Part shown: positions 10,113 through 37,960 of the stretch, in pieces
How the letters are laid out: each line of letters opens with the position of its first letter
How positions within the stretch are numbered: the first letter of the stretch is position 1
Origin: an uncultured Gammaproteobacteria bacterium
Lineage (GTDB): Bacteria; Patescibacteriota; Patescibacteriia; UBA9934
Assembly (NCBI GenBank): GCA_964414795.1
Contig: CAYPWV010000005.1
Location: 4,336 to 68,335 of the forward strand
Direction of reading: 5' to 3'
DNA length: 64,000 nt
Program-made: the position numbers and the translations under genes
Notes under the pieces: generated by a model
What the model was told of the DNA's origin: nothing
What the model saw: only the letters and a program-made list of their open reading frames with translations
Databases searched by the model: none

Positions 10113-13100
10113 TTAAGCGTAGACCGGTTCAAACTCCTTATAGACACGCACGGTCTCAAAGTAAATGAACTCGATAAGACGCTCAGTTTGTTTTTCTTGA
10201 AGAATGCCTCGTTGAATCAACATCAAACGAACATTCTGACGAATACGAGCTTTAATGGTTTCGTTATTTGTCCAATCGATTGCGAGGTCTCTTCGAATAC
10301 GTTTTGTGAGATCTTTTACGAATTCTTTAATATCAATCCCGGTATCTTTAAGGTCGGGATTCTTTTCTAGCGAATCGTAGAATGCGATTTCTTCAGGGGA
10401 CAGTCCAAGTGCCTGACTTTCTTCATCGAGCTTTTTGATTTCTCCAGCGATCTCAAGAAGACGTTTGATGATTTCCGCCGAGCTAATCACGTTGTTCTCG
10501 TATTTTTCAATGAGATCGGAAAGCAAAGTAAGCATCGTCTCATAGCGCGCCTTGTTCATTCGCATTCGAGTAACAATTTCCTTATCCAGTAATTTGCGAA
10601 CGGTATCAACGGCAAGGTTTTTGTACTCAGATTTGCGAATTTCTTCGGCAAACTTCTCATCGAAAATAGAGATACTCTTCGATTCGTTTGCAACAGCAAA
10701 TAAATCAATGACTTCTTCGGCCTGAACGGCATCATGAAGCAGCGAACGAATTGCACTTTCCGTTTCTTCAGGGAAAACTGCCTTTGGAATAACCGTTTGC
10801 TTCGCGATTCCTTCGCGAACCGCTTGAAAGAATTGCACATCACCAGCAATCTTCATGGCTGGTTCGCTTGGCATGACCAATGCATGTAACTTCGACAATT
10901 TTCCAACGGTACCGATGTACTGCATCTTTTGATCGTCGGAAAGAATTCCGTTCTTTGAAATTACCGCGTTAATACAAGACTGCAACAACCGAGACAATTC
11001 CGTACCCTTCAGTTTTTTCCAATCCGAATATGTGATGCTATCCAGAAACGCGATACTTTGTTTATGTAGCGCATTCATTTCTGAGATAATCTCATCAAGA
11101 GGAATCATCGCCTCTTTTTGAGTTCCGGAATCATATACTGCCAACGCTTTTTTGAGGTTGTCTGCGATACCGATGTAATCAACAATAAGTCCACCCGGTT
11201 TATCCTTAAACACCCGGTTGACACGGGCGATTGCCTGCATGAGTCCGTGGTTTTTAAGCGGCTTATCAAGATACATGGTGTGGAGGCACGGGACATCAAA
11301 ACCCGTTAGCCACATATCGCAAACAATCGCGATCTTGAGCGGATCGTTTATTTTCTTGAATCTTTTTTCCAGCTTCTTTACGTCACGCTCGGTTTGAATA
11401 TCTGACACATATTCATCGCTATCAGATATAACTACCGCGCATTCAGGGGCATTAGGTATCTTTTGAATCTCTTTGTACATTGCAACTGCGATTCTTCGAC
11501 TCATTGTCACGATCATCGCCTTTCCTTCAATAGGGCGATTCGTGAAGTGACGAACAACATCTTTTGCAACTTCCTCTATACGACTCTGCGCTCCAACAAT
11601 CTCTTCAAGTACTGCCCACTCTTTACGAGCTTTTGTTTTCTCATCAACGATAATTTCCCCAAGTAAGCTATCGAATTTTGAATCGATAAACTTATCCGCC
11701 ATGTGCAGTGGCACAAGACGCCCCTCGTAATAAATAGGAACCGTTGCACCGTCCCGTACCGCCTTACCAATGCGATACTCACTTACTATTGGCCCGAACA
11801 CCCTTACCGTGTCCTTATCGTCATTCGAGATAGGAGTTCCTGTAACGCCTAAAAAGCTCGCGTTTGGCAAAGCCTGTCGTACACTCCCAGCAAGACCACT
11901 ATATTGAGTACGGTGGGCTTCATCAGCAAGTACAATCACGTTCTCGCGATCCGTTAATACCGCATTCGCGTCTGGATCTTCCTTAAACTTTTGGATCGTA
12001 GTGAAAATAAGTTCGCTCTGTAAATGTCCGAGTCGATTCCTTAGGTCTGCGATACTCAACGCTCGTTTTGCAAGCGTTCCATATCCTGTCCGTTTAAACG
12101 TCTTAAAAAGCTGATCATCCAAATCTTCGCGATCGGTAAGAAAGACGTAGGCCGGGCCTTTCAATGCATCGATGCGATTGGTTTTGTTAACGTAGAAAAC
12201 CATGGAAAGTGATTTTCCGGATCCTTGCGTGTGCCAGAAAACACCGATCTTGTGATCCTGTTCGCCTCCCACGGCGCGTATCGTGCTTTCAACGGTCTCA
12301 TTGACTCCGTAATACTGATGATACAGACACATTTTCTTCGTGTAGGTAACTGCGTCTCCATCTCCATCTGCCTCGAAGACGATAAAGTTCCGAAGCACGT
12401 CCAAGAAACGATGCTTTTCGAATAAGCCAATTGCGAGTACTTCAAGTTGACTCGCATCTTTTGGCGCATCATCATCCGTCTTTACCCCTTTCCATGCCCC
12501 ATAACGCTCCCAGGAAGAGGAAATCGTTCCATGCTTCGCCGTATGAAGATCAGAAAGTCCGATAACTTGGTTATACAAGAAGAGCTTTGGAATCTCTTTT
12601 TTGTACAATTCGATATCTCGATACGCTTCGCCGATAGAAGCAGTATCACGCACTGCGCTTTTTAGCTCGAATACCGACAACGGCAATCCATTGATAAACA
12701 CCACTACATCAGGACGACGAAGAGAATCCGCTCCCTGTACAGTGAATTGATTTACAACGAGAAATTCATTTGCATCTGCATTCTCATAATCAATAAGTTT
12801 CACTAACTCGGCATTCTCGTTTCCATCAGTTCGCCAAGAATGCTTTTTTCCATCCGTAATCCAGGAAAACATTTCCTTATTACCAAGAACCAGATCCGCA
12901 TGATTATATTCCGCAATATCATCTGCAACTTCCTCGGCCTGCTCTGAAGGCAACTGCGGATTAAGGCGTCGAATAGCCCCAACCAACCGATCCTTCAATA
13001 CAACAGTTCGAAAATCGCCACGCTCAGCTTTTTGCTGACCGGGGTTAATGTCGGGGCCGTATACATATTCATAGCCCTGACCCTTGAGCCAATCTATAAG

Positions 13101-13163
13101 GGATTGCTCGGTTAAGTTTTGTTCGTTGAGAGAGTTCATAGATTGAATTCGGGATATCCACAT
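10113..13163 (-). CDS. hsdR: Type I restriction enzyme R subunit (1016 aa)
   Basis: N-terminal HsdR_N/nuclease region, SF2 helicase motifs (TQGSGKSLSMVF Walker A, VLADEAHRTQ DEAH box, GFDVPCL), and the typical C-terminal helical domain. Confidence 0.93.
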   Translation of the reverse strand: MWISRIQSMNSLNEQNLTEQSLIDWLKGQGYEYVYGPDINPGQQKAERGDFRTVVLKDRLVGAIRRLNPQLPSEQAEEVADDIAEYNHADLVLGNKEMFSWITDGKKHSWRTDGNENAELVKLIDYENADANEFLVVNQFTVQGADSLRRPDVVVFINGLPLSVFELKSAVRDTASIGEAYRDIELYKKEIPKLFLYNQVIGLSDLHTAKHGTISSSWERYGAWKGVKTDDDAPKDASQLEVLAIGLFEKHRFLDVLRNFIVFEADGDGDAVTYTKKMCLYHQYYGVNETVESTIRAVGGEQDHKIGVFWHTQGSGKSLSMVFYVNKTNRIDALKGPAYVFLTDREDLDDQLFKTFKRTGYGTLAKRALSIADLRNRLGHLQSELIFTTIQKFKEDPDANAVLTDRENVIVLADEAHRTQYSGLAGSVRQALPNASFLGVTGTPISNDDKDTVRVFGPIVSEYRIGKAVRDGATVPIYYEGRLVPLHMADKFIDSKFDSLLGEIIVDEKTKARKEWAVLEEIVGAQSRIEEVAKDVVRHFTNRPIEGKAMIVTMSRRIAVAMYKEIQKIPNAPECAVVISDSDEYVSDIQTERDVKKLEKRFKKINDPLKIAIVCDMWLTGFDVPCLHTMYLDKPLKNHGLMQAIARVNRVFKDKPGGLIVDYIGIADNLKKALAVYDSGTQKEAMIPLDEIISEMNALHKQSIAFLDSITYSDWKKLKGTELSRLLQSCINAVISKNGILSDDQKMQYIGTVGKLSKLHALVMPSEPAMKIAGDVQFFQAVREGIAKQTVIPKAVFPEETESAIRSLLHDAVQAEEVIDLFAVANESKSISIFDEKFAEEIRKSEYKNLAVDTVRKLLDKEIVTRMRMNKARYETMLTLLSDLIEKYENNVISSAEIIKRLLEIAGEIKKLDEESQALGLSPEEIAFYDSLEKNPDLKDTGIDIKEFVKDLTKRIRRDLAIDWTNNETIKARIRQNVRLMLIQRGILQEKQTERLIEFIYFETVRVYKEFEPVYA

Positions 13164-13261: not shown

Positions 13262-13987
13262 TCATTTTTTATCTACATATTTGTAAAATTCAGTTGTTCC
13301 TGATTTAAAAATTTCAAAGTGATTTTTAATGTGTGCCTTAATAATTTCGTAAGGCCGAATCTCATTCCTCTCATTTTTAATCGAAACTGCCCAACAGCAA
13401 TAATCAGCAAGTTGACAATTCAAATCAGAATTCGACGAGTGAGAAAAAATCTCAAATGGTACGGGGGGAAATGCTTCTTTCAAAAAATGTTTTAGTGTTT
13501 GCAGAACAATCTTTTTCTTGTCGCCAGTATAGAGAGAGCCCAGAACGACAACAATTTTATCAACTTTTTCGCGCTTTCCCTCAAATAAGTATTTCAACAA
13601 ACACTCACAACATTTCTTATAAAGACCGAATCCTGTTACTCGTTCAATTAATTTTTTTCGTTTATAATAGTTTTTTTTATATAAAGTTGGGTTGGCTTTA
13701 TTTTTTTGAGCTATCACTGAATGCACTTCAAAAGTTCCATTGAGTTGTTCGAACAAACGAAACACTCGATTTCTCACATCTTGTGAATCCTCGGTTGCGT
13801 GAAAAGATTCTTGATCCAAGCCTTGTACAAGTAATCGATAACGCAAGCGCAATAACTCTTCTCGCTTTATCACGGGATCAAAAGTGACAAAACCCGTAAG
13901 AACAAAAAACTTTGTCCCCTTTGGGGAGAAATCAAAATTTCCTGACTCATCCAAAAACACGAAAATTGTCTTTTGTGTGGACTCCAT
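13262..13987 (-). CDS. DUF3800 family protein (241 aa), embedded between hsdS and hsdR
   Basis: Its N-terminus, IFVFLDESGNFDF, is the [FY]xDESG signature I associate with DUF3800. A paralog lies at 16518-17171. The region is AT-rich relative to its neighbours. Confidence 0.7.
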   Translation of the reverse strand: MESTQKTIFVFLDESGNFDFSPKGTKFFVLTGFVTFDPVIKREELLRLRYRLLVQGLDQESFHATEDSQDVRNRVFRLFEQLNGTFEVHSVIAQKNKANPTLYKKNYYKRKKLIERVTGFGLYKKCCECLLKYLFEGKREKVDKIVVVLGSLYTGDKKKIVLQTLKHFLKEAFPPVPFEIFSHSSNSDLNCQLADYCCWAVSIKNERNEIRPYEIIKAHIKNHFEIFKSGTTEFYKYVDKK

Positions 13988-13991
13988 AGAA

Positions 13992-15143
13992 CTAAATCAA
14001 CTTTACTGATAACAAATCTCTTGATTGTTCCAAAAGCTCGACTTCTTTAATTAACCGTTTTATTTCTTCAAACAACGAAGCAACTCTTTTATGAAATAGG
14101 TTAATTATTGCACCGGTGGGTTCTAATACTTTGATATTTGAGAATATATTAGTATTCACATTCAACGTCGTTGATCCACCTGAACCGATAGCTTGTAAGT
14201 CACTCTTTTTACTTACTAAACTGAAGTACAGAAATTCCAGCAGACTCTTACCATTCGGGATGACGGTATTTATCTGTTGATTCGTCTGTGAGTCTTTCGT
14301 TGTAATTGAAACCAATCCAACGGTTGCAATACAACTCACACAAATCGATCCTTCTGGCACAAGTTTATTTTTTTGAGTACTGGCACCTGCTTCTGTGAGG
14401 CTGTCTTCAGTTTTAATGATAAATACCTGCCCATGCATGTCAGGAATTTTTATAAAAAATATATCACCACCAAAATAGCTTGGTTCAGACTTTGAAGGAG
14501 TTTTTCCACAAACTACATTTCCAAAATCACTGACTTTTCCAACTCGCCACCCCTCCGGAATCTCCCCCATCTCACTCTCAACCAATCCGACCTTCTCATG
14601 ACCAGGAAAGTTAAACTTCACAAACCACTCGTCAAAAATGGCTTGTGCAATTGCTTCAAGATTTTTGATAATGGAGTTGTTGTTTTGTATTTTTTCATCG
14701 TAAGAGCTCAAAATTGCCGCAATCTTTTTTTGATACTGGACATTGGGAATTTTTACTTGCATCCCGTGTATGTGATTACGGTTTAGGGTAGGAACTCCCG
14801 TCCCAGAATTGAATTTTTCAAAATCAAATGACGACAAAAAATAATAACAAAACTTTGGATCATTACCGTGAAAATCACTGACGTACAAGGTCGTGTTATG
14901 CGGCCAATAATCCTCCTCCACGTAAAAGATGCCCCCCAACGATCCACTTCGCCCTGTAAATACACCGGGTCCTCTAACCTTGAACTCATTGTGAAATTCT
15001 CTTCGACCATTCGAGAAGACAACCGGGTATTCACCTTTTTTAATCTCCGTCAGAGGCAGATCATAACCTCGATGAAAGGTGATCACTTCGCCAAGAGTTG
15101 TTTCTTTTCTCTCCTTTTTTATTTGTTCCAAAAATTTGTCCAT
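13992..15143 (-). CDS. hsdS: Type I restriction-modification specificity subunit
   Basis: Two target-recognition domains separated by and ending in conserved coiled-coil spacer regions (LEAIAQAIFDEWFVKF...; C-terminal LFEEIKRLIKEVELLEQSRDLL). It starts 5 nt after the stop of the upstream coiled-coil gene. Confidence 0.9.
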   Translation of the reverse strand: MDKFLEQIKKERKETTLGEVITFHRGYDLPLTEIKKGEYPVVFSNGRREFHNEFKVRGPGVFTGRSGSLGGIFYVEEDYWPHNTTLYVSDFHGNDPKFCYYFLSSFDFEKFNSGTGVPTLNRNHIHGMQVKIPNVQYQKKIAAILSSYDEKIQNNNSIIKNLEAIAQAIFDEWFVKFNFPGHEKVGLVESEMGEIPEGWRVGKVSDFGNVVCGKTPSKSEPSYFGGDIFFIKIPDMHGQVFIIKTEDSLTEAGASTQKNKLVPEGSICVSCIATVGLVSITTKDSQTNQQINTVIPNGKSLLEFLYFSLVSKKSDLQAIGSGGSTTLNVNTNIFSNIKVLEPTGAIINLFHKRVASLFEEIKRLIKEVELLEQSRDLLSVKLI

Positions 15144-15145
15144 AT

Positions 15146-16318
15146 TTATTCTTCTTCTGGCACCGGCAATTCCAACGCCTCAATCTTTTGCAACTGAACA
15201 ACTCCGCTAATATCCCCATAAATACCTATCGTATTTTTAATAACTTTTTGAATCTGTTTTTCTCGCTCCGTCCAAATCTTTTCATAAGCAAGACGCTCCT
15301 TTTGTAAAGAAATATTCATACCTTGAAACGCTTCGACAATCGCCTCAATGCGCTGACGGAATTCAACTCCTGAAAGATAGGAATACATAACTTCCATCTT
15401 TTCATTCTTGCCAACCGAACTGAACTTTTCACGAGCTACCGAAAGAAGTTCTTGCCGAAGAAGTGTGGCAACAGAAACGGCCAATTTTATATCGCAAACC
15501 CATACGCCATCTCGATCAGAGATTGCGTCTGCGCCCGTTGGAAGAACGGACGAGACGATAACCGCGAGATCCGCTTTTACCGTTCGTTGATCGTCCTTAA
15601 GTTTTTGAATCCAGCCTTCAGTCCAAACTTTTGTCTTTTTAGACTCCCAAATAATCTTTCCGCACTCAATACCATTCTTATTTTTAACAATCTGAATTAC
15701 ATCAGCTCCGTTAACTCCTTTGGGGACAAGGATGATATCGTCGTAAATAAATTCACTCTTGAGCGTTTCCTCAAGAATCATTTCTTGAACTTCGCCCTGC
15801 GTCTGCTGCGACCCTTGTTCTAACTTTCTAGCCAACTCATCTTTCGCTTTTGTGGCATCGGAGAGCTGCTTGTTTAACTGATCAATCTTAGCTTGCTGAG
15901 CCTCTGTGGCTCGCTTCGATGCGTCTTCTTCGATCTTCTTTCGCTCTTCATCCATCTGACGCTGTTTCTCTAGCTCAAAGCGGTCTTTCTCTTCTTTTAA
16001 CTGCACAGCCTGACGACGAAGTTCAAGCTCTTTTTCTCCTGACTCCTTAAGCTTTTGCTCCTTGTCCTTAAGTTGCTCCTCTAAAAACTTGCGCTCTGCT
16101 TCACCTTCTTTTGCTACGTCGGCTTTTACTTTTTTCGTAAGGTCAGCAGATAGTGCATCCAACTTCTTTGTATTCTCCCTTTCGAGGGATGCCTTAAGAA
16201 CAGCTTCTTTTTCTTCAAAGTCTTTCTTTAGTTTACTCTCAATCTGGTGCGTCAAAACATCATCGATAGAAATCGACTCATGACAGTTTGGACAGATAAT
16301 TTCGTTTGTTTTTGACAT
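15146..16318 (-). CDS. Zinc-ribbon / long coiled-coil / C-terminal PD-(D/E)xK-like protein (DUF2130-like, 390 aa)
   Basis: N-terminal CPNCHESISIDD zinc ribbon. About 170 aa of E/K-rich heptad coiled coil. C-terminal domain with a candidate nuclease motif (GADVIQIV...GKIIWESKKTK reads as D...ExK). It sits between a DUF3800 gene and hsdS. Confidence 0.6.
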   Translation of the reverse strand: MSKTNEIICPNCHESISIDDVLTHQIESKLKKDFEEKEAVLKASLERENTKKLDALSADLTKKVKADVAKEGEAERKFLEEQLKDKEQKLKESGEKELELRRQAVQLKEEKDRFELEKQRQMDEERKKIEEDASKRATEAQQAKIDQLNKQLSDATKAKDELARKLEQGSQQTQGEVQEMILEETLKSEFIYDDIILVPKGVNGADVIQIVKNKNGIECGKIIWESKKTKVWTEGWIQKLKDDQRTVKADLAVIVSSVLPTGADAISDRDGVWVCDIKLAVSVATLLRQELLSVAREKFSSVGKNEKMEVMYSYLSGVEFRQRIEAIVEAFQGMNISLQKERLAYEKIWTEREKQIQKVIKNTIGIYGDISGVVQLQKIEALELPVPEEE

Positions 16319-16517
16319 ATGGGGATAGATTGACTTTTTGTTCAGATTCTGGTATATTCTTTAGTAGAGGCATGCAATAATATCTTATCTGATGCTTCGG
16401 CGTTCCCTCGGAGTTTCTGGGGTTTCTCTCGGCAACGAGAGATGTAGCTGAAGATATTCATCACATAAGACGCTGCTTCTACCAAAGAAAGTCTGTATCA
16501 CAGGCTTTTTTTGTTTG

Positions 16518-17171
16518 TCATGTGAAAAACTCCTTCCCTTGGTCAAGAAAATTATTCTTGAGAATTTTGTAGCATTCTTCACCAAGTGGGGATTTTTCCA
16601 GATAACGATTCAAGGCTCCGGAGATCCAGTCTACAATCTGCATGTTTGCATTCGATGTAGAATCAACCATTTCCACTTGTACCACGGTTCCTGGAGGACA
16701 AAGCGTAAGAATTCGTGCTCGAATTGATTGTTCAAATTCTTTTTTCGTAACGCCATTTAAAGAGCGCTGGTCGCAAAATACATGAATCTCTTTTTCGTCA
16801 TTAGGAAAATATTGTTCGATAATTTGGGTAATAATATTGGTATAAAGTTTACCGCTCTCAATTTTTCCTTTTTTCCGAAAATTACTCGGGATATTATTTC
16901 GCAGTAAATAACCAAACCGAATACGCACGTCTAATTTTGCAATATATTTCAATGTCTTTATACGAAGATCGTCGGTGATGCCAGATTGCGACCATTTGAT
17001 CTCAGCTTGCGATCGCATCTTTCTCGGAAACCGATCACGCCACGCTCGGAAAGCTTTTGCAGTTCGACGCTGATCACCAACCGTAAAAGATCCAATCACG
17101 AAATACTCCTCATGGTTATGCTTTGTAAAATTGCCACTCTCATCCAAAAAGAGAAACATATTAGAATCCAA
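16518..17171 (-). CDS. DUF3800 family protein, second paralog (217 aa), embedded immediately downstream of hsdM
   Basis: N-terminus MFLFLDESGNFTKH carries the same DESG signature. It overlaps the hsdM stop by 11 nt. Confidence 0.7.
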   Translation of the reverse strand: MDSNMFLFLDESGNFTKHNHEEYFVIGSFTVGDQRRTAKAFRAWRDRFPRKMRSQAEIKWSQSGITDDLRIKTLKYIAKLDVRIRFGYLLRNNIPSNFRKKGKIESGKLYTNIITQIIEQYFPNDEKEIHVFCDQRSLNGVTKKEFEQSIRARILTLCPPGTVVQVEMVDSTSNANMQIVDWISGALNRYLEKSPLGEECYKILKNNFLDQGKEFFT

Positions 17172-18957
17172 GCTCTTTCAAGTTGCCCTCAATAACATTC
17201 TCTAGTTCGTGTCCGCGTTTAAAGGAAATATGCAGTTCATCGGAAAGCTTTTTCATCTTTTCCTCGAACGAGATGCCGTCATCTTCCACCTCGGAGAGTC
17301 CGACATATCGTCCTGGAGTGAGGACGTAACCGTTCTTTTGAATCTCATCTAACGTTGCCGATCGGCAATAACCAAGGATGTCCTCGTATGCACCGGCTCC
17401 ATCCTCTCCGCGCCACGCACGAACCGTCCCTGCAATCTTTTGTATATGCTCTGCGTTGAATACAACTTGCTTACGTGAAATCTGCTCGAACAATTCTCGG
17501 GCATCAATAAAAAGCGTTTCTCCTTTGCGAGAGCGGAAGCGGTCACCACCTTTATTTTTTGATAAGAACCAAAGCGATACAGGAAGCCCAACGTTGTAGA
17601 AAAGTTTAGAGGGACAGGAAATAATCACGTCAACAAAATCCGTTTCGATAAGTTTTTGTCGAAGCTCACCTTCTTTTCCAGATACTGCCAACGCACCGTT
17701 TGGCATGACAAATCCAGCGTTTCCGTTGGGCGCGAGATGATGCACAAAATGCTGTATCCACATGAAGTTGGCATTTCCCGAAGGGGGAAGGCCAAGAATG
17801 ATCCGGGGATCGTTGTCCGAAAGTTTCGAGGGTTCCCATTCACCATTGAAGGGAGGATTCGTGATAACGAAATCCGCCTGCAAATGCGGGAACATGTCGT
17901 TATAGTAAGTGTTGCCGAGTTCGATCTTTCCGGAAAGGCCTCGGATCGCAAGGTTCATCTTGGCAAGGCGAAGCGTTGTCTGGTTGCTTTCCTGACCATT
18001 AAATGAAAGTTTTGGCGCATCCTTCCCATGTTCGCGAAGATATTCAGCTATGGATACGAACATGCCACCGCTTCCACAGGCAGGATCAAAAACGCGAGCA
18101 TTCTCTCGCGGCTCAAGAACTTCTACTAAAAGTTTTACGATCGAACGCGGAGTGAAAAATTCTCCGCCACGTTTGCCCTCCGCTGAGGCAAACTGCCCAA
18201 GGAAGTACTCGTAAATGCGCCCAAGGATATCTTTTTCTCGATCAAAATCATGATTGAATGAAATGCGGGAAAAGATGTTAACCAATTCACCCAATACCGA
18301 ATGATCAAGATTTGTTTTTGTATATACGCGTGGAAGTACATTTTCAAGTTGATCAGGATTATCCTTCTCGATAAGCATCATTGCATCATCTAAAACCTTT
18401 CCCAAATCCGCGCTCATTGTCTTCGTTTGGAGATACTCCCAACGCGACCGTTCTGGAACGTAGAAAACACCTTCCGCGGTATAAAAATCTTTAGTCTCAA
18501 GAATTTGCTTACGAGCCTCCTCGTTCGAAACATAGAAATCCTCGTTCTTTGGATCGCGAGTCATTTCCGCGAGTACCTCACGACGTTTGTAGAAAGAATC
18601 CGAAATGTATTTTAAAAAGAGAAGCCCGAGAACGATGTTCTTATATTCGGAGACATCGATATTTCCACGGAGCTTATCAGCGGCTGCCCACAGTTCTTTT
18701 TCGAAGCCAAGATCATGGTGCTGACTCTTTTTTCCGACCACGCTTGCCGTCGCCTTCTTCTGCTCTTCCGTGATTCGTCCTTGAAGCTCCTCGGAAAGAG
18801 AGGCCTTGGGGATAACAAAGGTCGGTTTCGACGAATCGCCGATATTTTCAGCAATAATGTCACCTTTCTTAATTTTCTGGTGAACAGCCACACGAGAAAT
18901 CCCCAGCATCTTGGCTAGCTGGGTTGGAGTAATGAATTGGGATTTATCGATGGACAT
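17161..18957 (-). CDS. hsdM: Type I restriction-modification DNA methyltransferase (N6-adenine) with an extra N-terminal HTH domain
   Basis: HsdM_N region (ELWAAADKLRGNIDVSEYKNIVLGLLFLKYISD), the SAM motif (FDPACGSGGMF) and the catalytic VITNPPFN motif. The first ~80 aa are an additional HTH (ITPTQLAKMLGISRVAVHQKIKKGDI). Confidence 0.93.
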   Translation of the reverse strand: MSIDKSQFITPTQLAKMLGISRVAVHQKIKKGDIIAENIGDSSKPTFVIPKASLSEELQGRITEEQKKATASVVGKKSQHHDLGFEKELWAAADKLRGNIDVSEYKNIVLGLLFLKYISDSFYKRREVLAEMTRDPKNEDFYVSNEEARKQILETKDFYTAEGVFYVPERSRWEYLQTKTMSADLGKVLDDAMMLIEKDNPDQLENVLPRVYTKTNLDHSVLGELVNIFSRISFNHDFDREKDILGRIYEYFLGQFASAEGKRGGEFFTPRSIVKLLVEVLEPRENARVFDPACGSGGMFVSIAEYLREHGKDAPKLSFNGQESNQTTLRLAKMNLAIRGLSGKIELGNTYYNDMFPHLQADFVITNPPFNGEWEPSKLSDNDPRIILGLPPSGNANFMWIQHFVHHLAPNGNAGFVMPNGALAVSGKEGELRQKLIETDFVDVIISCPSKLFYNVGLPVSLWFLSKNKGGDRFRSRKGETLFIDARELFEQISRKQVVFNAEHIQKIAGTVRAWRGEDGAGAYEDILGYCRSATLDEIQKNGYVLTPGRYVGLSEVEDDGISFEEKMKKLSDELHISFKRGHELENVIEGNLKELGF

Positions 18958-36820: not shown

Positions 36821-37960
36821 ATGGATCCAATGCTCCTCCTTCTTAGCCTACTTATTCTTGCGCTCATTGGCGTTATTCTTTTTACTCACATAAAAAAGAA
36901 TTCCGCTCATTCTAGCGAAATTATCACTACGTTCGACGCACTCAAACAAGAGCTCACTGACCTTAAACGTCTTTCCACCGAGCAACGGCAAGAGCTCTAC
37001 CAATTACAAACCGATGCTCGCAAAGAACTTTCGCAACATCTCAACACCATGAACGATCAAATGGGACGAGGTCTTTCAGAATCTCATCGCTCCATGCAAA
37101 CGCAATTTTCCCAAACGTCAAAGCTCATCGAAGACGTTACACTCCGCCTCACCACCTTGGATAGCACAAACAAACAGGTACTCGACTTTTCTTCACAACT
37201 CCAAAAAATGCAAGATATCCTCAAAAATCCAAAACAAAGAGGTATTTTAGGAGAATTTTATCTCGAATCACTTCTCGGAAATACACTGCCTCCCGAATCA
37301 TTTCAAATGCAGTACACCTTTCCTGATGCAACCATTGCCGACGCTGTCGTTTTCGTAAATGAAAAAATCATACCCATCGATTCTAAGTTTACACTCGAAA
37401 ATTATAATCGTTGCGTCGAGGCTACTACCGATGAAGAACGAATTAAATTTGAAAAGCTTTTTATTCAAGATCTTAAAGGGCGCATTCAAGAAACCACAAA
37501 ATACATTCAGCCTGCACAAGGAACAACCGATTTCGCGTTCATGTTCATTCCACACGAAGCACTGTATTACGACCTCCTTACAAACAAAATTGGACTAAAT
37601 ACCGAAGAAAACAGTGAAAATATTTTACAACGCGCAGCAGGGAAGTATCGCGTCATTATTGTATCTCCTACAAATTTCTTAGCATATCTGCAAACGATTC
37701 TTCAGGCACTCAATGCCATGAAAATCGAAAAGAATGCCGGGGAAATTAAAAAACACGTTAAAGAACTGCATCGTCATTTTTCCTCTTTTGCAGATTTTCA
37801 TGAAAAAATGGGAAAAAACCTGGGAACAACAGTCAACCAATTCAACCAATCATCCGAAGAGCTTCGTAAACTCTCAAAAGACATCGTCAAAATAACCACA
37901 GGCGAAGTAGGGGATTTACTTGAAATGAAAAAAGTCCATCGTCCGGAAATGATTGAATAG
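36821..37960 (+). CDS. rmuC: DNA recombination protein RmuC
   Basis: N-terminal TM, a long coiled coil, and the conserved RmuC C-terminal domain (FAFMFIPHEALYYDLL, VIIVSPTNFLAYLQTI). Confidence 0.9.
   Translation: MDPMLLLLSLLILALIGVILFTHIKKNSAHSSEIITTFDALKQELTDLKRLSTEQRQELYQLQTDARKELSQHLNTMNDQMGRGLSESHRSMQTQFSQTSKLIEDVTLRLTTLDSTNKQVLDFSSQLQKMQDILKNPKQRGILGEFYLESLLGNTLPPESFQMQYTFPDATIADAVVFVNEKIIPIDSKFTLENYNRCVEATTDEERIKFEKLFIQDLKGRIQETTKYIQPAQGTTDFAFMFIPHEALYYDLLTNKIGLNTEENSENILQRAAGKYRVIIVSPTNFLAYLQTILQALNAMKIEKNAGEIKKHVKELHRHFSSFADFHEKMGKNLGTTVNQFNQSSEELRKLSKDIVKITTGEVGDLLEMKKVHRPEMIE

Follow-up and report, generated by a model that had tools for sequence, protein, structure and literature searches.

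A DUF2130-family protein with a predicted PD-(D/E)xK nuclease domain, encoded within a type I restriction-modification operon

A type I restriction-modification (R-M) locus on the minus strand of the window (the whole stretch of 64,000 nucleotides that we analysed) carries, between hsdM and hsdS, a gene for a DUF2130-family protein that joins a putative N-terminal zinc knuckle and a long helical stalk to a domain with the PD-(D/E)xK nuclease fold. The linkage to hsdM recurs among relatives of the gene, and the residues of the candidate active site are invariant across the family. Our general reading, for which we judge the chances to be evenly balanced, is that the protein is an accessory or defence nuclease embedded in the R-M system. 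The proposed link between DUF2130 and type I R-M systems is apparently unreported.

The DUF2130 gene and its family

The gene is real, and its family and fold were both called correctly in the original prediction. The predicted open reading frame was recovered exactly; it runs from an ATG start, backed by alignment of the N-terminus with homologs, to a TAA stop codon at 15146-15148, and two independent metagenome contigs carry an identical protein with gene order unchanged.

15146..16318, minus strand: gene for a DUF2130-family protein of 390 aa (ORF call and PF09903 match)

The PF09903 match (E=8.4e-60; 202.6 bits against a gathering cut-off of 26.7) spans residues 142-384 of the protein and positions 2-252 of the 255 in the profile, and DUF2130 is the only Pfam domain in the 390 residues. 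The family motifs QGSQQxQGE, G-x-x-G-A-D, W-E-x-K, K239 and F320, which are invariant or at least 90% conserved among 150 representatives, are all found in the protein, and it is a typical member of DUF2130 (PF09903, COG4487) that shares every family-invariant residue. The PF09903 model, covering residues 142-384, leaves out two parts described below, the conserved CPxC knuckle and the distal stalk.

The family comprises 4291 representatives (clusters at 50% identity) at E<=1e-3 and 1433 at E<=1e-30, and the named close homologs of the protein come from Patescibacteria (CPR) genomes. It is well conserved, with 45% identity across phyla, a degree of conservation that is less typical of fast-evolving defence genes and to that extent speaks against a defence role. 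A search of NCBIfam, PHROGs and PADLOC gave no match for the protein. Specifically, none of the 5027 models of PADLOC-DB v2.0.0 matched at E<=0.01, which likewise counts against defence; the neighbouring genes do match, and the library includes the PDC (embedded-candidate) models. Sequence searches of the PDB with the protein and with the family profile returned coiled-coil and zinc-finger noise alone and no solved relative, and we found no functional study of any family member in the literature under DUF2130, COG4487 or PF09903.

The predicted nuclease domain

The protein divides into six parts, all encoded on the minus strand.

16268..16303, minus strand: residues 6-17 (EIICPNCHESIS), beta-hairpin with a single conserved CPxC putative zinc knuckle (AlphaFold strands and alignment)
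15833..16267, minus strand: residues 18-162, one long alpha-helical stalk, 51% charged (AlphaFold helix, composition, periodicity)
15800..15832, minus strand: residues 163-173, linker with a near-invariant QGSQQ leading into the nuclease domain (conservation)
15491..15799, minus strand: residues 174-276, PD-(D/E)xK nuclease core with candidate active site E179, D206, E225, K227
15233..15490, minus strand: residues 277-362, three helices with a conserved Y312-x-Y314 ... F320 motif (AlphaFold and conservation)
15149..15232, minus strand: residues 363-390, conserved tail (low-confidence model, pLDDT 43-48)

The C-terminal part of the protein had been predicted to form a PD-(D/E)xK nuclease domain with a D...ExK signature, and fold and residue conservation both bore this out. 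The AlphaFold model has a mean pLDDT of 73 for the whole protein, and that of residues 160-390 a mean of 77, with 80-91 in the core. The modelled elements follow one another as alpha174-189, beta194-197, beta207-212, beta218-227, alpha234-247, beta251-256, beta266-269 and beta272-276, and the alpha-beta-beta-beta-alpha-beta core fold of the superfamily is present among them. The C-terminal model was put through three fold searches, and these agree on PD-(D/E)xK. Foldseek matched BstEII, Bax1, Hjc, the SPARDA nuclease, DdmD and MspJI in the PDB (probability 0.9-1.0, with modest E-values of ~3e-3) and giant-virus Mrr-like proteins among viral models (E down to 6.5e-8 over 214-243 columns); the structural neighbours are mostly DNA endonucleases. 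Likeness to Mrr-like and Hjc-like endonucleases (Can2/Card1, McrC, NgoMIV, Hjc and Bax1) is at superfamily level, with 8-20% identity, and all of these lack the N-terminal half of CPxC and stalk. The fold assignment is already in the literature and thus not new: Steczkiewicz et al. 2012 listed DUF2130/PF09903/COG4487, sourced from Pfam, as PD-(D/E)XK family 109, with function given as 'Unknown' (PMC3424549).

An alignment of 150 DUF2130 representatives, 36-66% identical to the query, contains ten strictly invariant positions (G175, E179, D193, G201, G204, D206, E225, K227, K239 and F320). The predicted signature takes the form G204-A205-D206-V207 and E225-S226-K227, with D206, E225 and K227 unchanged in 150 of 150 sequences. 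Read off the secondary-structure map, E179 lies in alpha1, D206 starts beta2 and E225-x-K227 lies in beta3, the positions canonical for catalysis; the corresponding codons are at 15782-15784 (E179), 15701-15703 (D206), 15644-15646 (E225) and 15638-15640 (K227). Judged from the alignment, the putative active site E...D...ExK is complete and invariant, and the strict invariance of its four residues across sequences this divergent argues for retained catalysis. The protein is most likely a metal-dependent nucleic-acid endonuclease, and DNA would be its likelier substrate. Both the invariance of E179, D206, E225 and K227 and the preponderance of DNA endonucleases among the structural neighbours weigh against a non-catalytic structural or regulatory protein (a scaffold, or a regulator of restriction that binds nucleic acid or the R-M complex) and against a nuclease that cleaves RNA, an alternative that we regard as very improbable.

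Behind the core, the three C-terminal helices (277-300, 304-315 and 318-362 in the AlphaFold model) still lie within the PF09903 model. The tail that follows them has the family consensus TxGMYGDLQGIxxLPxIxxLEL, with G368 conserved in 147, G372 in 132 and L382 in 130 of the 150 representatives, and is a candidate peptide for partner binding or oligomerisation.

The N-terminal knuckle and the helical stalk

For the N-terminal half, the original prediction had proposed a zinc ribbon (CPNC...H) and a heptad-repeat coiled coil over residues ~30-200, and each held in part. The CPNC is present: C9-P10-N11-C12 occupies the turn of a hairpin (C9 at 16292-16294, C12 at 16283-16285) between strands 6-8 and 15-17, which AlphaFold places with low to moderate confidence (pLDDT 54-69), and C9, P10 and C12 occur in 143 of the 143 sequences with an aligned N-terminus. 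The four-ligand ribbon did not hold, as only the CPxC is conserved. H13 (15/150 representatives) and H24 (34/150) are variable, a second [CH]x1-4[CH] pair turns up within 40 residues in just 5 of 141 sequences, and all zinc-finger Pfam models stay below threshold on the protein. The N-terminus reads as one putative zinc knuckle, half a ribbon, which could form a tetrahedral zinc site only together with another chain or with a partner protein. Such a knuckle has a known analogue in the CxxC zinc hook shared by Rad50, SbcC and RloC (PMC2610378); we infer a likeness of the DUF2130 CPxC to this hook, by which analogy the protein may bind zinc and dimerise.

The proposed coiled coil is indeed a long, charged alpha-helix, which the AlphaFold model shows uninterrupted from residue 18 to residue 162 (pLDDT 80-90); its extent differs from that predicted, and residues 174-200 fall in the nuclease domain, outside the stalk. 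Asp and Glu make up 26% of the stalk, Lys and Arg 25% and large hydrophobic residues 21%. The heptad repeat did not stand: hydrophobic periodicity at 3.5 residues is not significant in the sequence (p=0.74), nor is it in the family-averaged hydrophobicity profile (p=0.24-0.74). A hydrophobic stripe with a period of about 3.6-3.67 is significant (p about 0.002-0.005), and the stalk is therefore amphipathic with a conserved stripe, which fits a non-canonical (hendecad-like) bundle or packing on a partner. Because of this stripe, we did not adopt the reading of the stalk as a single alpha-helix (ER/K) spacer without a packing surface; given the 51% charge, such a spacer is a possibility for the distal stalk.

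Between 61 and 459 residues (median 194) precede G175 in the family alignment. Family members differ in the length of the distal stalk (about 30-75), and the proximal part (about 97-166, ~70 residues) is conserved, as is the linker behind it, where Q168, G169 and S170 are each conserved in at least 90% of the 150 representatives at a pLDDT below 50. Domain fusions in the longest DUF2130 members were considered as a clue to function and set aside as uninformative, since these members have merely longer stalks, plus one ankyrin fusion.

The type I R-M locus of the window

Embedding of the gene in a type I R-M locus was confirmed, with DUF2130 between hsdM and hsdS in a minus-strand order of hsdM, DUF3800a, DUF2130, hsdS, DUF3800b and hsdR.

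17161..18957, minus strand: hsdM, type I methyltransferase subunit, 598 aa (N6_Mtase E=1e-101, HsdM_N E=4.5e-25; PADLOC MTase_I)
13992..15143, minus strand: hsdS, specificity subunit, 383 aa (Methylase_S, two matched stretches; PADLOC Specificity_I E=7e-118)
10113..13163, minus strand: hsdR, restriction subunit, 1016 aa (HSDR_N, SWI2_SNF2/ResIII, T1R_D3-like and T1RH-like_C; PADLOC REase_I E=3.6e-249)

The locus is intact, with a complete set of domains encoded by each of the three Hsd genes. It is flanked by the housekeeping genes for EF-P, FtsK and RecA, and its GC content is lower than that of its surroundings. The ATG of hsdS lies 2 nt past the DUF2130 stop codon (TAAatATG).

Genomic context of relatives

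Context was sampled around the 80 best DUF2130 matches in genomes (44-83% identity). Upstream sequence of at least 2.5 kb is available at 66 of these loci, and 19 of the 66 have an hsdM-like gene in the same orientation no more than 2.7 kb upstream; only one locus has such a gene downstream of DUF2130. As a rough estimate, a random gene in a genome of ~1000 genes with one type I system would be expected near R-M genes in well under 1% of cases. The R-M-linked loci form synteny groups, so that these samples are not independent. The HsdM proteins of the linked loci, together with that of the window, represent 8 lineages with less than 50% identity between them, and the gap between hsdM and DUF2130 is at most 5 nt in 9 loci from 4 lineages. 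Median pairwise identity across the linked loci is 27% for HsdM and 55% for DUF2130, and R-M-linked and unlinked DUF2130 genes are interleaved when ranked by similarity to the query. The 8 HsdM lineages and this interleaving indicate that the association was formed or kept many times and is no single inherited accident. By the logic of guilt by embedding, a gene found directly after hsdM in at least 8 lineages is a defence candidate that current defence-finder models are missing.

Many of the hsdM-DUF2130 operons continue downstream with hsdS and hsdR, and other genes are often inserted in them as cargo (OLD-like AAA_15-TOPRIM, AAA_21, AAA_13, NYN, Bro-N, Fic and RhuM). Over the whole set of loci, the commonest neighbour at position +1 is an AAA_15/AAA_21 ATPase (11/74 loci) and at position -1 an N6_Mtase/HsdM_N protein (7/71), and defence-type genes dominate among the remaining neighbours. 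DUF2130 is in this respect like other guilt-by-embedding candidates, extra genes nested in type I R-M operons (bioRxiv 10.1101/2024.01.29.577857; PMC11411939). It fits the class of Payne et al., yet has no match among their embedded-candidate PADLOC models. TgvAB is nested in a type I R-M system of V. cholerae (PMC11411939) and is a GmrSD-like type IV system, unrelated to DUF2130 in sequence.

About 70% of the related loci have no R-M linkage, and some adjoin housekeeping or repair-type genes (ExoX-like exonucleases and AddB-like nucleases), which counts against an accessory role in defence. The protein might instead be a housekeeping or mobile-element nuclease of recombination and repair, RmuC- or Hjc-like, that is structure-specific and acts on broken DNA or on intermediates of recombination; that it occurs in the R-M operon would then reflect hitch-hiking, or the repair or limitation of self-damage by the R-M system, rather than defence. 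RmuC (PF02646) and ShdA of the Shield system share with DUF2130 an N-terminal helical region followed by a C-terminal PD-(D/E)xK nuclease and then helices, and RmuC has a similar motif order (a G-x-x-GE helix, a D-hydrophobic-V strand and a (D/E)-x-K strand). In vitro, DNA is degraded by the RmuC domain of ShdA, which also confers defence against phages (PMC10270631). RmuC and ShdA differ from DUF2130 in having an N-terminal membrane anchor and no CPxC.

Profile comparison gave no significant similarity between DUF2130 and RmuC: the protein has no Pfam RmuC match even at E<=10, and hhalign returned a probability of 0.2 against E. coli RmuC and 0.14 against a profile that is shallow, with 5 sequences. 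A homolog search started from E. coli RmuC gave sequences of 84-100% identity only, too close for a deeper profile. On these values we do not claim kinship beyond the superfamily level. The genome, moreover, already holds a separate canonical RmuC (36821-37960). The hsdM linkage in 8 lineages and the gaps of at most 5 nt in 9 loci are hard to explain by chance, and the dominance of defence-type genes among the remaining neighbours also runs against a repair nuclease. We hold this alternative to be possible but doubtful; if it proved right, this would suggest that restriction and DNA repair are connected.

Mobile elements contribute few relatives from phages, as 7 of 50,697 phage records carry DUF2130, all of them prophage-like and from Helicobacter, and we rejected a phage origin on this ground. 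Plasmid records with DUF2130 number 45 and are mostly from Bradyrhizobium. Two plasmids that we inspected, from Mesorhizobium and Sulfurimonas, have a WGR-domain gene directly upstream of DUF2130; ArdC, ParB-domain and relaxase genes are near it on the former and a Fic gene on the latter. Such distant plasmid homologs in conjugation or leading-region contexts could equally mean DNA processing or anti-defence.

A possible tie of the predicted nuclease to the R-M complex

From its place in the operon, we take the DUF2130 gene to be co-transcribed and translationally coupled with hsdM and hsdS. In the accessory or defence role that we favour, the nuclease would probably serve as a back-up or second line of defence, with its production, and perhaps also its activity, depending on the R-M complex. 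The chains may oligomerise through the stalk, with the CPxC knuckles of two chains completing one Zn(Cys)4 site in the manner of the Rad50 and RloC zinc hooks. A shared zinc site of this kind would draw two nuclease domains together; many nucleases of the PD-(D/E)xK superfamily cut as dimers. The protein might serve in one of three ways: as a second-line defence nuclease that acts independently but is encoded in the shared operon, as TgvAB is (PMC11411939), as a PrrC-like guard that is freed when the R-M enzyme is inhibited, or as a nuclease of repair or recombination by which damage from the R-M system is limited or mended.

The PrrC-like guard is a specific sub-case of the preferred reading, in which the nuclease would be held inactive on the type I R-M complex (M2S or R2M2S) until a phage anti-restriction protein or DNA mimic disables R-M; the freed nuclease would then degrade DNA and kill the infected cell or the phage (abortive infection). 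Like DUF2130, the nucleases PrrC and RloC are encoded within type I R-M loci or in linkage with them. The type I R-M enzyme linked to PrrC keeps this nuclease silent, and a phage anti-restriction factor switches it on; in RloC a nuclease is joined to a coiled coil whose CxxC zinc hook controls nuclease activity (PMC2610378). Besides these precedents, the position of DUF2130 inside the operon beside hsdM and hsdS, with translational coupling, is consistent with a guard, and the conserved, disordered C-terminal tail could serve as its docking peptide.

The folds and chemistry are, however, unrelated. PrrC and RloC have an ABC-ATPase domain and an Arg-Glu-His tRNase (anticodon-nuclease) domain, whereas the DUF2130 protein has no ATPase family match in Pfam, neither an ATPase nor a sensor domain, and a C-terminal domain that is PD-(D/E)xK rather than Arg-Glu-His. 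In RloC an antiparallel coiled coil bears the hook at its apex, while the DUF2130 CPxC sits at the extreme N-terminus of one long helix, and prrC is placed between hsdS and hsdR, unlike DUF2130 between hsdM and hsdS. Because most family members are without an adjacent R-M system, silencing by a linked R-M enzyme cannot be the general mechanism, and we consider the guard unlikely.

Extended to the family, the guard would make DUF2130 proteins a widespread and hitherto unrecognised class of single-gene defence effectors guarding type I R-M enzymes, a proposal to which we assign a low probability. A nuclease dimer or higher oligomer would be clamped at the far end of the stalk by an intermolecular CPxC zinc site, docked on the HsdM/HsdS core, perhaps through the C-terminal tail, and unleashed by phage anti-restriction proteins. 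If true, this would give PrrC a counterpart that cuts DNA and is especially frequent in the very small genomes of the candidate phyla radiation. A defence role in the general sense would, if true, add a defence component with a prominent place in CPR/Patescibacteria, a group in which little is known of immune repertoires. The DUF2130 family, with at least 1433 clusters at 50% identity, in any case gains a testable hypothesis, in the form of a candidate active site (E179/D206/E225/K227) and a candidate regulatory knuckle (C9/C12).

The DUF3800 genes and an antisense RNA

Two DUF3800 genes and an RNA accompany the locus.

16518..17171, minus strand: DUF3800 gene a, 217 aa (PF12686 E=3.4e-15; PADLOC PDC-M04A, a candidate-series model, E=3e-10)
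13262..13987, minus strand: DUF3800 gene b, 241 aa, in the hsdS-hsdR slot (PF12686 E=1.2e-14; PADLOC DUF3800_VII)
16366..16480, plus strand: DUF3800-V RNA (Rfam RF02964), antisense to the operon (55.4 bits against a gathering threshold of 37.4, E=2.6e-10)

Co-variation of DUF2130 with the adjacent DUF3800 genes, which the original prediction had put forward as a check, was rejected: tblastn found a DUF3800 gene beside DUF2130 at 0 of 80 other DUF2130 loci, and the family is absent from the commonest neighbour families. The segment that carries DUF3800a and the RNA is a discrete insertion, separate from the DUF2130 unit. At the two closest loci, L001 and L002 (HsdM 87% and DUF2130 80-83% identical), hsdM abuts DUF2130 and DUF3800a is absent, and DNA alignment against both gives the window about 850 extra bp (17157 to 16307), in which DUF3800a is carried. 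The hsdS-hsdR slot likewise holds variable cargo, DUF3800b in the window and an AAA_21/AAA_15 ATPase in L001.

RNAs of the DUF3800-V type, which have no known function, are found on both sides of DUF3800 genes and on both strands (PMC5737381). The RF02964 match in the window covers the full length of the model, and on the plus strand it is bracketed by a promoter-like site at 16330-16358 and a terminator-like hairpin of 14 pairs at 16483-16513.

C-terminal half of DUF2130 and a second nuclease-family gene

The top viral structural matches of the DUF2130 C-terminal half, among BFVD models, are Mrr-like proteins of giant viruses (e.g. A0A1C9C4X3 and E3T5I3), with sources including Heterosigma akashiwo virus, CroV, Megaviridae, Orpheovirus, and Pithovirus. 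Because these alignments extend beyond the ~120-residue core to almost all of the 231-residue query, the predicted structures suggest a nuclease-plus-helical-bundle module common to DUF2130 and the viral proteins. The tail of DUF2130 (residues 363-390; window 15149-15232, minus strand) is modelled with very low confidence and carries the family-wide consensus TxGMYGDLQGIxxLPxIxxLEL, in which G368 is kept in 147 of 150 aligned representatives; possibly it serves as a short linear motif, either for binding a partner or for self-association.

At a separate site (36821-37960, plus strand) the window also encodes a canonical RmuC homolog of 379 aa, with ~25% identity to E. coli RmuC and the motifs RGxxGE, D-A-V, and D-S-K. 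DUF2130 and RmuC are thus both present in this organism.

DUF3800 genes, an antisense RNA, and HsdM

Two different DUF3800 genes, whose PADLOC matches are PDC-M04A and DUF3800_VII, are embedded in the one type I R-M operon:

16518-17171, minus strand, DUF3800 gene between hsdM and DUF2130
13262-13987, minus strand, DUF3800 gene between hsdS and hsdR

Neither is present at the two most closely related loci (L001 and L002), and both are therefore recent cargo insertions. An Rfam RNA is detectable only for the first of the two: a strong match to DUF3800-V RNA (55.4 bits vs a gathering score of 37.4) lies in the gap between this gene and DUF2130, on the strand antisense to the operon, with candidate signals on either side:

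16330-16358, plus strand, promoter-like site 5' of the RNA (TTGACT-17-TATATT with extended TG)
16366-16480, plus strand, DUF3800-V RNA
16483-16513, plus strand, terminator-like hairpin of 14 pairs, 3' of the RNA

Judged from sequence, the stretch 16330-16513 (plus strand) looks like a small transcription unit of its own, with putative promoter and terminator. Its transcription would converge with that of the operon and could influence read-through that passes from hsdM and DUF3800 into DUF2130 and hsdS. DUF3800 RNAs have been described without an assigned function (PMC5737381).

HsdM itself bears an N-terminal extension of ~80 residues, in which residues 9-54 (18796-18933, minus strand) show weak similarity to helix-turn-helix models; the HTH_17 match, at E=8e-4, stays below threshold. 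The methyltransferase could thus carry a fused module for DNA binding or self-regulation.

Genomic neighbours of DUF2130 homologs

The gene most often found immediately downstream of DUF2130 (11 of 74 loci) encodes an AAA_15/AAA_21 (OLD/AbiEii-like) ATPase, which in some cases also has an OLD-like TOPRIM domain:

L023, L028, L031, L038, L049, L052, ATPase as the +1 gene
L001:7754-9199 and L045:11599-13497, further ATPase genes

This adjacency could represent a recurrent nuclease-plus-ATPase pairing or merely co-residence in defence islands.

More distant homologs (~34% identity) occur on Sulfurimonas plasmid pSULFM1 and Mesorhizobium plasmid pMspAR07b, in both preceded by a small WGR-domain protein. 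A Fic gene lies nearby in pSULFM1. The pMspAR07b neighbourhood, with ArdC, DUF736, ParA/ParB-domain, and relaxase genes, resembles a conjugative leading region. Bradyrhizobium is the source of 31 of the 45 plasmid records with DUF2130.
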